A stretch of DNA of 64,000 bases from Candidatus Berkiella sp. (lineage in GTDB: Bacteria; Pseudomonadota; Gammaproteobacteria; Berkiellales; Berkiellaceae), in the NCBI GenBank assembly GCA_050252335.1, contig JBFWLB010000007.1, positions 2,261 to 66,260 on the forward strand, in the 5' to 3' direction. The position numbers were made by a program, and so were the translations under genes. Below are positions 5,413 through 9,548 of this stretch, one piece after another (the first letter of the stretch is position 1; every line of letters begins with the position of its first letter). Below the pieces are notes generated by a model, which saw only the letters and a program-made list of their open reading frames with translations, made no database searches and had not been told where the DNA came from.

Positions 5413-6513
5413 ATGCTAAACGGCACAAATATTTCTAAAGATGCAGAAGAAACAAAGCCAAATGATGATACAAACCCTTATGCCATCGTGCCATATGTAG
5501 CTCAACCATCCATAGCACCTACAATACTTGATGCTGAAGCGGATGCTTCCTTTTTTGCCAAATTTCAATATGGATTCACTTTCTACGCTGTGTCTGTTCT
5601 TCCACGTATGTTACCTATTTTGAAAAATAATCGACCTTGGTGGTCTAATATCATTCCAGGTCTTAAGCTTGGCGCAATTCCCATTGCAGACTGGGAACAT
5701 GGCTCTTTATTATTGGAAGAATCATTCTTAGAAAATAGAAAGCTTGGCTTGATTGTTTCTTGTTGCGGAGATTTTGAATTAAAAGGCAATGGGCTAATCA
5801 CACTCACACCCGTATCACCCCACTTTTGGGTAGAGAAAAATGTCACACATTTACAAGTTAAAATGCGTGACTTTGGTGGCGATGTACCATTAGATCAAAT
5901 TCGTATTGCAGTAGAACAAATGCATCAATACATCCAAAGTGGAAAAACCGCTTATGTGCATTGCAAAGCGGGAAGAGGTCGCAGTGTCGTTATGGTGATT
6001 TGCTATCTCATGCAATTCCTGGATTACACACCTGATGAAGCAATCGCCTTTGTACGAGAGAAACGTCCTGAGATCTCTTTGTCAAAAGCACAATATGATT
6101 TTATTGAACAATACAGAGCAGAATATAGATCTGACCTCACACCACTTTATTCAAAAGCTACGCAACAAGACATGATGCTTCGTCCTTTGCATACATCTCC
6201 TTCTTTTGTAAATGCACCTTCTTGGATCGCAAGCACGCTTTGGTATATTGTGACGCTCTTTAATCGCAAGACCATTGACCAACATTGCCGAACCTTGGAA
6301 ACCTATTTAATCCAAGATTTTAGCGCGCTATTAAGAAATTTAAATGCAGGCCAAATACGAACTTTGCATGCAAGTCTGACCGGACAAAGGCCTTATACAC
6401 AAGATCTCGTTTGGTATTACCCCATTTATGCAGCAGGACAAGCAGCCAGAAACAACAACGCGCCACAGATCGAAGAGCTTACTTTAGAATTAGATAAGAA
6501 ATTAAAACTATAA
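5413..6513 (+). CDS. Dual-specificity/PTPMT1-like phosphatase with C-terminal extension
   Basis: CX5R motif HCKAGRGRS; WWSNIIPGLKLGAIP resembles the PTPMT1 N-terminal region; DFGG acid loop. Confidence 0.85.
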   Translation: MLNGTNISKDAEETKPNDDTNPYAIVPYVAQPSIAPTILDAEADASFFAKFQYGFTFYAVSVLPRMLPILKNNRPWWSNIIPGLKLGAIPIADWEHGSLLLEESFLENRKLGLIVSCCGDFELKGNGLITLTPVSPHFWVEKNVTHLQVKMRDFGGDVPLDQIRIAVEQMHQYIQSGKTAYVHCKAGRGRSVVMVICYLMQFLDYTPDEAIAFVREKRPEISLSKAQYDFIEQYRAEYRSDLTPLYSKATQQDMMLRPLHTSPSFVNAPSWIASTLWYIVTLFNRKTIDQHCRTLETYLIQDFSALLRNLNAGQIRTLHASLTGQRPYTQDLVWYYPIYAAGQAARNNNAPQIEELTLELDKKLKL

Positions 6514-6607
6514 AATATTTTTCAATAGATGCTTTACTTTTCTTAACAGTATGTCTAGAATTTTCAAACGATAGCCATCGTCACTTCAGTTAAGTGACAA
6601 TGGCTTA

Positions 6608-6700
6608 AACTCTCGGGGTGCACTGTTGTGCTGAGATAATCAATTTATTTGATTGGACCCGCTGAACCTGCTCTGAATAATATCTGCGGAGGGAAGAGAA
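6608..6700 (+). ncRNA. TPP riboswitch aptamer
   Basis: ctcggggtgc...gctgaga...accc-gctgaacctg...ataat...gcggaggga matches the THI-box; upstream of thiamine genes. Confidence 0.92.
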
Positions 6701-6836
6701 ATGTTTGACTATACTCTATTTTTATCAATATCACTTATTCAATACTTACCTTATTTATTTCACATCCCCGATCGTTGATCACACCTTTATTATTTTGAAA
6801 TTTTCAGGCAATTAGTACATTGTAACATTATTTTTT

Positions 6837-6992
6837 ATGAGCGAAGCGAATAAGATCCCTCTTTGTAAAGGGGGACGGTGCGTAGCACCAGGGGGATTTA
6901 TGCCACAAATGAAAGTCAAAACAGCTAAATCTCTCTTGCGCTACGCGCTTTCTCCCTTTACAAAAGTGAGAAACCTAATTCGCTGTGCGAAT
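6837..6992. repeat. Long REP/MITE-like element (copy A)
   Basis: Ends atgagcgaagcgaat / attcgctgtgcgaat; inverted arms ctttgtaaaggggga / tctccctttacaaaag; homologous to 39517-39665 and 48057-48231. Confidence 0.8.
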
Positions 6993-7118
6993 TGAAAATT
7001 CTACTAAAAACTAAGGTTACAATACACTGCGTTTTCTTTCGTTTTTATTTTGCCTTGCATTTCAAAATATTATTTTTTTTTTCATTAGAAATTTTCTTAA
7101 AAATAATAAGAGGTGCTT

Positions 7119-8009
7119 ATGCACGTCCCTTTTTTACTCAATTGGTATCTAAATCCTTATCATACGCCTTTAGTGGTTGCTAAAGAGATGGGATTTTTCG
7201 AACAATATGACATTGATCTTGCCATTATAGAGCCAACCAATCCCAGCGATGTCACAAAAATCATTGGAACGGGCGCTATTAAATTAGGCTTAAAAGCCAT
7301 GGTGCATTGTTTCGCAGCACGCGCACGCGGTTATGCAATTCAATCTATCGCTACTCTACTAGATGAGCCTCCTACAGGACTCATTTCTTCTTTAGAAAAA
7401 CCGATAAAACACATCGCAGATATTCAAAATAAACGCATTGGTTATGTGGGTGAGTTTGGAAAAATAATGATTGATAATCTTGTGCAAGAAGCAGGTTTTC
7501 CAGCTAATTGCTATGAGGCCATACGCGTTGGTATGGATGCAGCACACGCTATTTTAACAGGTCACGTTGATGCTGCGATTGGTATTGCTAGCTTTCAACA
7601 AATAGAGCTTGAAGAAGCGGGTATGCCTTCTTATTTAATGCGTATTGATGAAATGGCTCAATTAGGATGTTGCTGTTTTTGCTCTATTCAAATCATCGCA
7701 CATGATTCATTTTCTCAAGACAACCATCCAATGATGCATTGCTTTTTACAAGCATTACAACAAGGTTTGCAAATAACAAAAAAAGACCCCGCGCAAGCAT
7801 GGAAATGTTTAATAAAAACGAAACCTAGATTGGATACGCCTATCTATCAGAAAATCTTTCAAGCAACACGCCATTATTTCTCTTCAGATTTAAAAAATGT
7901 TGATAGAGATTGGCAAAAAGTAAGAGATTATGCACAACGACTCAAGATCACTGAGTCTCAACTCCCACTCTCAGCGTGCTATACCAACCGTTTCTTCTCT
8001 CCCATTTAA
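7119..8009 (+). CDS. thi5: THI5/NMT1-type HMP-phosphate synthase
   Basis: FLLNW start, GLKAMVH (PLP Lys and His of THI5), [14 protein letters not shown] motif; under TPP riboswitch. Confidence 0.92.
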
Positions 8010-8031
8010 TCATTGCAGTACAAGGAAACAA

Positions 8032-8829
8032 ATGATGTTTACACAGATTGATGAAAAAGAAATTACACGTGCTATCATCCGTGAATACCATGATCAACTA
8101 GACTCAGCGGTTGAATCAGATGTAATTATCGCTGGCGCAGGCCCTTCTGGACTCGTTGCAGGTCGATATCTGGCACAACGTGGCTATAAGGTAACTATCA
8201 TAGAAAGAAACAATTATCTAGGTGGTGGCATGTGGATCGGTGGCTACTTAATGAATAAAGTCACTTTGCGCGCACCTGCTCAAGCGATTTTAGATGAGTT
8301 GAATATTGCCTATAAAGAATATAAGCCTGGACTTTTTGTTGCAGACTCAGCTTTTTTTGCATCTGGTTTAATACGAGGTGCTTGTGAAGCGGGTGTTACA
8401 TTTTTAAATATGACCATTGTTGAAGATGTTGTGGTTAAAAATAAAGTATTAACTGGCTTGGTGATTAACCCTATGCCTGTCACACAGTTGCCCAGAATGA
8501 TCACTTGCTTAGATCCCATCATCATTGAATCTAAACTCGTCATCGACGCAACAGGACATGATGCAATTATTTGTAGATTGCTCGGTAAAAGACAAATGCT
8601 GGAATCTAAAGGGATGGGACCTTTATGGGTGGAAGCCTCTGAAAAAGAAATTGTAGCGCGCACAGGAGAGGTATTTCCCAACCTAATCATTTCCGGGATG
8701 GCTGTATCAGAAAAATGTGGCCTACCACGCATGGGACCTACATTTGGTGGTATGTTGCTTTCTGGTAAACGCGCGGGAGAAATTGCTTGTGCGGCACTAG
8801 AAGCCAAACAACGAGAAAAAACTGAGTAG
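8032..8829 (+). CDS. thi4: THI4-type thiazole synthase (Cys-type)
   Basis: [45 protein letters not shown]; RBS aaggaa before ATG 8032. Confidence 0.92.
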
Positions 8830-8902
8830 GATATCTATACAAGTTAGACAAAATGTACCTGCTTTGCATACTTATACGCAAAGCAGGTACACAAGTAATT
8901 AT

Positions 8903-9004
8903 TTACTTGCCTTCTTTCTTTTCTTTTTTAGCTTGACGCTTTTCTTTCAAGGTTTTTGTTGGTTTCTTTTTTTCTTCTTTTTTCTTATCTTGACCTTTTG
9001 CCAT
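8903..9004 (-). CDS. 33-aa lysine-rich small protein (not in ORF track)
   Basis: Hand-translated MAKGQDKKKEEKKKPTKTLKEKRQAKKEKKEGK*; strong SD GAGGAG upstream of ATG. Confidence 0.75.
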   Translation of the reverse strand: MAKGQDKKKEEKKKPTKTLKEKRQAKKEKKEGK

Positions 9005-9122
9005 AATAAGCTCCTCATTAAATCATTTATAACGAAACTAATCTTGATATTTTAACCATTATAAAATAATTTATCTAGCCATACAGGATTTCATGTTTAG
9101 TTGTTAAACTAAAGGTAGCATT

Positions 9123-9548
9123 ATGCCCTATCAAATTTCCTTTGAATCTACCCCTTCTCAGCAAGATATCCAAGTACTCTGTGACGGTATTTCTGCACAT
9201 GCCAAGAAAATGAAAGATCTGAAGGTCATCGATTTTTTTGCATTTTTTATTCGTGATGCCCAAGGAAAAATTCAAGGGGGCTGCAATGGCGATAATTTAT
9301 ATGGCTGCTTATACGTTGGACAACCTTGGGTTGCAGAATCCTTACGCGGACAAGGCTATGGCACAAAACTAATGCACGCAGCTGAACAATATGCAAAAGA
9401 GCAGAATTGTAATTTCATGGCTGTAAACACTATGGATTGGGAAGCGCTCGAATTTTATCAAAAACTCGGCTTTGAGATTGAATTTGAACGACATGGCTTT
9501 GCAAAAAACTCAATTTTCTACTTTTTGAGAAAAAATCTTGTTATCTAA
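9123..9548 (+). CDS. GNAT family N-acetyltransferase
   Basis: WVAESLRGQGYGTKLM acetyl-CoA motif, ALEFYQKLGF. Confidence 0.9.
   Translation: MPYQISFESTPSQQDIQVLCDGISAHAKKMKDLKVIDFFAFFIRDAQGKIQGGCNGDNLYGCLYVGQPWVAESLRGQGYGTKLMHAAEQYAKEQNCNFMAVNTMDWEALEFYQKLGFEIEFERHGFAKNSIFYFLRKNLVI

Follow-up and report, generated by a model that had tools for sequence, protein, structure and literature searches.

A two-gene THI5-THI4 operon behind a TPP riboswitch as the probable source of both thiamine moieties in a Candidatus Berkiella species

Two adjacent, co-directional genes in a 64,000-nt stretch of the genome of an amoeba-associated Candidatus Berkiella species (contig JBFWLB010000007.1; this whole stretch is called the window, and coordinates refer to it unless another locus is named) encode homologues of THI5 and of Cys-type THI4. 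THI5 makes the pyrimidine half of thiamine as 4-amino-5-hydroxymethyl-2-methylpyrimidine phosphate (HMP-P), and THI4 makes the thiazole half. Both genes are on the same strand as a thiamine pyrophosphate (TPP) riboswitch, which precedes them (Table 1). THI5 and Cys-THI4 are the textbook enzymes that destroy themselves for one molecule of product, and to our knowledge they have so far been discussed together only for fungi. An earlier note on this DNA had placed the two side by side; protein families, alignments and motifs confirmed this, and its start of THI5 (7119) and its end coordinate (8829) were correct. The locus is best explained, quite probably and as judged from sequence, as a two-gene riboswitch operon that would supply both halves of thiamine by the yeast route. 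It is a variation on an established pathway, and the pairing is both real and recurrent.

The thi5 gene starts with the ATG at 7119, with the ribosome-binding site AAGAGG at 7108-7113, and its stop codon ends at 8009. The longest open reading frame (ORF) of THI4, 7930-8829, overlaps THI5. The true start is most likely the ATG at 8032, which has AAGGAA 6 nt upstream and lies 22 nt past the THI5 stop.

The THI5 product matched PF09084 with 195.7 bits. It scored 270-273 bits against the structures of yeast THI5 (4h65 and 4h6d); in the 273-bit alignment, residues 3-294 lie on yeast residues 6-303. It was also aligned end to end with C. albicans THI13. The KAMVH segment lies on KAMIH of yeast, within the yeast stretch GLKAMIHTLAAKARG. 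In this alignment, Lys59 (7293-7295) and His63 (7305-7307) are opposite Lys62 and His66 of yeast, and CCCFC (residues 184-188; 7668-7682) is on the CCCFC of yeast. The claim of the earlier note that these residues are kept was thereby borne out. In yeast THI5, Lys62 is the lysine that binds pyridoxal 5'-phosphate (PLP). Each of the 21 related THI5 loci checked keeps the Lys, the His and the CCCFC, and the pattern K-x-x-x-H plus CCC[FWY]C was found in 118 of the 120 best THI5 homologues. Yeast THI5 is described as a single-turnover enzyme that consumes His66 (PMC10848271).

The THI4 product matched PF01946 (236 bits, profile positions 1-235), and its dinucleotide-binding GxGxxG is GAGPSG. Prokaryotic structures gave the higher scores (T. 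ammonificans 7rk0, 201 bits; methanococcal 4y4m and 4y4n, 179 and 166 bits), compared with the eukaryotic ones (Arabidopsis, 157 bits; Neurospora, 133; yeast, 108). Cys159 (8506-8508), in ITCLDP, was aligned on QSCMDP of Arabidopsis THI4, within HHTQSCMDPNVMEAK. The same column is His in the methanococcal THI4 ("LHIDP"). Cys216 of Arabidopsis THI4 is the active-site residue, is desulfurated in planta and has been equated with yeast Cys205 (bioRxiv 10.1101/2020.04.29.067249). By transitivity via Arabidopsis Cys216, Cys159 is predicted to be equivalent to yeast Cys205. This is the residue against which the earlier note wished the Cys of its TCLDP motif to be compared, and the alignment supports its view that this motif carries the active-site Cys. 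In addition, Asp161 (8512-8514) and His176 (8557-8559) align to the VDP and GHD segments of 7rk0 and match Asp160 and His175, the iron ligands of the T. ammonificans enzyme. The Cys, Asp and His were invariant in 12 of 12 THI5-linked THI4s. Since the motifs were invariant in all 21 THI5 loci and in all 12 linked THI4s, their conservation is far beyond chance. It should be mentioned that a THI4 of the Cys type is in itself no rarity among prokaryotes: in the species-genome collection, the active-site position is Cys in 75 of the 80 nearest THI4 loci.

The source genome (a 2.79-Mb assembly of 106 contigs, 99.4% complete) belongs to the same genus as Ca. Berkiella cookevillensis and represents its sister species; THI5 is 88% and THI4 ~97-98% identical between the two. 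A family search of this genome did not find ThiC, ThiG, ThiS or ThiO. By tblastn, with proteins from related loci as queries, ThiC, ThiG, ThiS, ThiO, ThiM, TenA and ThiL were not found in it. With phmmer, neither ThiS nor the ThiF E1 domain was matched in the genome, PF02597 had no match, and the only weak ThiL match was PurM. Thus the search for thiC and thiG suggested in the earlier note returned neither gene. Because ThiC, ThiG and the other alternative genes were not found in a genome of 99.4% completeness, no route to the two thiamine moieties other than the THI5-THI4 pair is visible. On this gene content, the organism likely depends on the operon alone for de novo synthesis of both.

The remaining genes of the route are elsewhere in the genome. 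At 7830-9475 of locus L006 on contig C9, intact thiE and thiD are adjacent, and a second TPP riboswitch (64.8 bits) directly precedes them. Genes for TerC, DUF2062 and CNNM/CorC proteins follow them on the same strand. Thiamine pyrophosphokinase (TPK) is encoded in this genome, and so is PdxJ for the supply of PLP. In a survey of 36 Berkiellaceae genomes, which are also the order-level set in this taxonomy, TPK was present in 22 and ThiL in 4. Because TPK is a family-wide trait, it did not arrive with the THI5-THI4 cassette. Family members that cannot make thiamine de novo carry TPK too, suggesting that the family baseline is to salvage thiamine from the host.

The TPP riboswitch is a constant part of the arrangement: it precedes THI5 in 12 of 12 THI5-THI4 loci tested and in two Legionella-type loci. 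In comparison with B. cookevillensis, dN/dS was 0.14 for THI5 and 0.03 for THI4, with dS of ~0.40, and both genes are under purifying selection. The leader from 6580 to ~6815 was roughly at least 90% identical between the two species, as judged by eye, and is thus far more conserved than the synonymous sites. The promoter-like sequence upstream of the aptamer is also conserved in B. cookevillensis. A 25-codon ORF (6701-6778) lies in the conserved G-poor tract; it shows three synonymous and three nonsynonymous changes (by eye), and the comparison with B. cookevillensis gave no coding signal either way. The other end of the operon has a terminator-like hairpin. The scan assigned it to the minus strand, on which a T-run comes after it; read on the plus strand, its stem is 23 nt past the THI4 stop.

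Table 1. Features of the THI5-THI4 locus (window coordinates) and the third gene of related cassettes (coordinates of the named loci)
Feature	Position	Strand	Basis or remark
Promoter-like candidate, TTTACT-17-TAGAAT	6533..6561	+	Consensus scan; such sites are no commoner than in shuffles
TPP riboswitch aptamer, RF00059	6604..6711	+	69.7 bits, gathering score 54.3; covers the whole model
Conserved G-poor leader, candidate expression platform	6712..6835	+	Alignment with B. cookevillensis
Insertion of ~200 nt with dispersed REP/MITE-like repeat	6836..7039		Missing from the collinear B. cookevillensis leader
Putative THI5-type HMP-P synthase, 296 aa	7119..8009	+	PF09084, yeast THI5 alignment, motifs, dN/dS
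Putative Cys-type THI4 thiazole synthase, 265 aa	8032..8829	+	PF01946, structure alignments, motifs, dN/dS
Terminator-like hairpin with 18-bp stem, operon end	8853..8892		Terminator scan
ThiD2-ThiE fusion, locus L124	7738-8685		Third gene after THI5-THI4
ThiD2-ThiE fusion, locus L126	7678-8601		Third gene after THI5-THI4
ThiD2-ThiE fusion, locus L128	7694-8698		Third gene after THI5-THI4
ThiD2-ThiE fusion, locus L131	7749-8708		Third gene after THI5-THI4

In 6 of the 36 Berkiellaceae genomes THI5 lies next to THI4, and ThiG and ThiC were found in none of these six. Among the others, THI5 occurs with ThiG in six, ThiC with ThiG in six and ThiG only in one; 17 have none of these. The pair was also found in one metagenome-assembled genome (MAG) labelled Alphaproteobacteria and in two labelled Gammaproteobacteria. 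The earlier note had called the pairing unusual for a gammaproteobacterium: it is indeed a minority state, but it is recurrent rather than unique. No description of a bacterial THI5-THI4 pairing was found in the literature searched (THI4 and THI5 in bacteria, Legionellales, Berkiella), and one may still be published; the Berkiella genome paper states only that thiamine genes are present.

In other MAGs and metagenome contigs (relatives' loci carry labels such as L124 and L128), THI5 and THI4 are mostly followed by a ThiD2-ThiE fusion (PF17792 plus PF02581), giving a three-gene cassette which would allow common metabolites to be turned into thiamine phosphate. The cassettes in Table 1 have the same order, riboswitch and motifs as the window, and their THI5 and THI4 are 54-61% and 69-79% identical to those of the window. 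Their third gene is absent in the window and in B. cookevillensis, where a canonical thiE-thiD pair lies on another contig instead. No remnant of a ThiD2/ThiE third gene was found 3' of THI4; tblastn matched only the ThiE on contig C9. The two-gene form looks derived from the three-gene cassette, because L128 shares with the window the dual-specificity phosphatase gene upstream. One cassette copy has an AbiE/Fic module and three tRNA genes as neighbours. Since other copies also sit in unrelated contexts, mobility of the cassette is suggested.

A tree of 65 THI5 sequences contained a fully supported split, with 14 of 14 THI4-linked THI5s on one side. The other side held all ThiG-linked bacterial proteins, three Legionella species and the eukaryotic sequences (oomycete, Chromera and protist transcriptomes). 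In a tree of 88 THI4 sequences, 13 THI5-linked members and 3 others were separated, again with full support, from 72 other prokaryotic THI4s. Two of the three others have different neighbours: ThiM-ThiL-ThiD-THI4-TenA in a Rickettsiales MAG (L047, 2416-6520) and ThiC-THI4 in a Proteobacteria MAG (L048, 3593-5771). Because the linked copies form their own clades in both trees, thi5 and thi4 travel together as a unit. The trees place THI4 as prokaryotic, not fungal, in origin; the clade of THI5 is bacterial and distinct from the side with Legionella and the eukaryotes sampled, with fungal THI5 outside the sample. The term "fungal-style" used in the earlier note is therefore apt as a functional analogy and not as genealogy, since both genes fall in prokaryotic or bacterial clades.

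The following route is proposed. THI5 would build HMP-P from PLP and its own His63, with the use of Lys59, the CCCFC segment, Fe(II) and O2. THI4 would build ADP-thiazole from NAD and glycine, with sulfur from its own Cys159 and a metal held by Asp161 and His176. ThiD would then phosphorylate HMP-P, and ThiE would couple the two halves to thiamine phosphate. Because ThiL was not found in the genome, TPP would be finished by a phosphatase and TPK. When TPP is plentiful, the aptamer would switch the operon off, probably by ending transcription early, within the conserved G-poor leader.

Three other explanations should be considered. The first concerns THI5, which might be a ThiY/NMT1-type solute-binding protein for pyrimidine salvage rather than an HMP-P synthase. 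ThiY shares the family PF09084 with the window THI5, the NCBI name of the B. cookevillensis orthologue is "ABC transporter substrate-binding protein", and a weak match to the SsuA family was found (45 bits; cut-off 163.5). We regard this explanation as hardly credible. The score was 273 bits against yeast THI5 and only 79 bits against the ThiY binding protein 3ix1, which speaks against the ThiY-type protein considered in the earlier note. The N-terminus coincides with that of yeast THI5, and a signal peptide has no room. No permease or ATPase gene was found among the window neighbours of thi5, which are THI4, a phosphatase and a GNAT. Together with the invariant Lys, His and CCCFC, this assigns the window protein, as far as its sequence tells, to the THI5-type synthases and not to the binding proteins. 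Furthermore, the L. pneumophila homologue was reported as an HMP-P synthase (Paxhia et al. 2021, as cited in PMC11705809). Another explanation is that the operon is a decaying remnant in this host-dependent bacterium, and that thiamine is obtained from the amoeba host and only pyrophosphorylated by TPK. Several findings do weigh against the proposed route or its control. The phosphatase step and the hydrolysis of ADP-thiazole have no assigned gene. The 3' end of the aptamer is 407 nt before the thi5 start codon, and the repeat element lies in between. Summed contig depth at 6786-7037 was 10-40x that of the flanks in four metagenomes and contigs break there, as expected for a dispersed repeat. 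The statement of the earlier note that the pair is under a TPP riboswitch holds in that RF00059 precedes it, with the caveat of a ~200-nt insertion before thi5 that is absent in the sister species. No intrinsic terminator was called on the plus strand in 6712-7118, and no clear sequestering helix was seen, the fold of 6596-6840 being no stabler than shuffles (z = 0.74). Termination by Rho would be compatible with the conserved G-poor tract that follows the aptamer. Metagenomes from landfill, wastewater, aquatic, bioreactor, microbial-fuel-cell and compost sources contain near-identical DNA (at least half of the sampled words were present in 14 sequencing runs), and three of the four metagenomes examined, from three studies, carry a 5-bp tandem duplication of TATAA after 8184 (8184-8189). 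This duplication, seen in assembled contigs only, shifts the THI4 frame at codon 52 (codons 51-53), so that translation would stop after 55 residues. The contigs covering the operon, from wastewater, aquatic and bioreactor samples, are ~99% identical to the window and differ from it by ~15 substitutions. In their THI5, six nonsynonymous changes stand against three synonymous ones, and P39T affects the conserved EPTNPSD motif. A sister strain thus seems to be losing the THI5-THI4 pathway, in keeping with the patchy distribution of the pathway. Because a strain of ~99% identity carries a frameshifted THI4, the pathway can be dispensable; likewise, several of the 17 family genomes without a de novo route still have TPK. 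For the window itself, however, decay seems quite improbable. Both ORFs are full-length and keep all catalytic residues, the long-term dN/dS is 0.03-0.14, thiE-thiD is intact behind its own riboswitch, and the leader is strongly conserved on both sides of the insertion.

The third explanation accepts the proposed functions, but THI4, and perhaps THI5, would not be truly single-use here. Either free sulfide or a persulfide (e.g. from a cysteine desulfurase) would be used with Cys159 as a relay, or the dehydroalanine would be repaired. Oliveira-Filho et al. 2026 described more than 400 prokaryotic Cys-Thi4 genes, clustered with DUF6775, ThiS, ThiF and sulfur-relay genes, and proposed for such enzymes, with pilot data, a non-suicide mode by an alternative sulfur donor or dehydroalanine repair (PMC13325395). 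The words Thi5, NMT1 and pyrimidine have no occurrence in that paper. The closest solved structure of the window THI4, 7rk0, is that of a catalytic, sulfide-using THI4, whose metal ligands are retained, and the best NCBIfam model is "sulfide-dependent ADP-thiazole synthase", although this name does not fit a Cys-type THI4. Moreover, the Cys-type majority among the closest prokaryotic relatives includes many from likely anaerobes. On the other hand, the partners on which the non-suicide hypothesis rests, ThiS, ThiF and DUF6775, were not found in this genome. A DUF6775 HMM, built from seven DUF6775 proteins adjoining related THI4 genes, reproduced the published association at 34 of 72 related THI4 loci outside the Berkiella-type clade, which served as the positive control. 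It found no DUF6775 neighbour at the 16 THI4 loci inside that clade and, even at E<=10, matched nothing in the genome studied here. Nor did this genome yield an assimilatory sulfite reductase, so no assimilatory sulfide is expected. The Cys is kept in every linked THI4. Re-use of this kind is thus considered unlikely, though worth keeping in mind. Because DUF6775, ThiS, ThiF and sulfite reductase were not found in the genome, the enzyme seems to be a lone THI4 like the eukaryotic ones, for which donation of the Cys sulfur would be the most economical reading. Strict single-turnover behaviour of both THI5 and THI4 is considered somewhat likely. It is rather improbable that both synthases would be re-used, helper-free, through some regeneration or external donor in a self-contained, horizontally moving prototrophy cassette of amoeba-associated bacteria. 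In that case the donors may be sulfur for THI4 and a histidine-derived fragment for THI5, and the two proteins may be catalytic versions of supposedly sacrificial enzymes.

The proposed yeast-like route can be compared with three known systems. In yeast and plants, the same two families make both rings (S. cerevisiae THI5 and C. albicans THI13, 4h65 and 4esw; THI4, 3fpz; the plant enzyme, 1rp0). Yeast and Berkiella have in common the catalytic Lys, His and CCCFC of THI5, the active-site Cys of THI4, the lack of ThiC and ThiG, and a last step via TPK and not ThiL. Unlike in yeast, a TPP riboswitch precedes the Berkiella genes, which share one operon, bacterial-type ThiE and ThiD are encoded by separate genes, and THI4 is nearer to the prokaryotic enzymes, as the scores above indicate. 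Lpg1565 of Legionella pneumophila is a bacterial THI5 with the same motifs and is ~49% identical to the window THI5. Horizontal acquisition has been proposed for the Legionella THI5 (PMC4256840). A TPP riboswitch before THI5 is common to both types of loci. However, the Legionella-type operon has the order THI5-ThiD-ThiO-(ThiS)-ThiG-ThiE-ThiF, in agreement with the statement of the earlier note that Legionella uses ThiG and ThiO for the thiazole, whereas in Berkiella THI4 replaces ThiO, ThiS, ThiG and ThiF. The THI5s of the two are on opposite sides of the fully supported split. The prokaryotic Cys-Thi4 clusters of PMC13325395 likewise have a Cys-type THI4 without ThiG. The Berkiella-type THI4 clade differs from them in having no DUF6775, ThiS or ThiF neighbour, and its partner is THI5.

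These comparisons have several consequences. A helper-free lineage relying on both enzymes would be a clean natural test of suicide in prokaryotic Cys-THI4, a question reopened in 2026, and Berkiella offers tractable bacterial versions of both. A bacterial pathway of six to seven genes seems to be replaceable by a riboswitch-controlled cassette of two to three genes, and such a swap helps to account for the mosaic distribution of thiamine routes among Berkiellaceae and their relatives. The two deep bacterial clades of THI5, only one of which groups with eukaryotes, bear on the origin of eukaryotic THI5. Annotation names are misleading for both proteins, THI5 being called a substrate-binding protein and THI4 "sulfide-dependent"; therefore pathway reconstructions would score such bacteria as thiamine auxotrophs or assign the wrong route.

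Upstream of the riboswitch, the window contains the gene of a dual-specificity phosphatase (5413-6513). It is syntenic with the gene at 4378-5532 of L128, the metagenome contig with a three-gene cassette. Because of this synteny, the phosphatase gene and the thi locus form an old neighbourhood.

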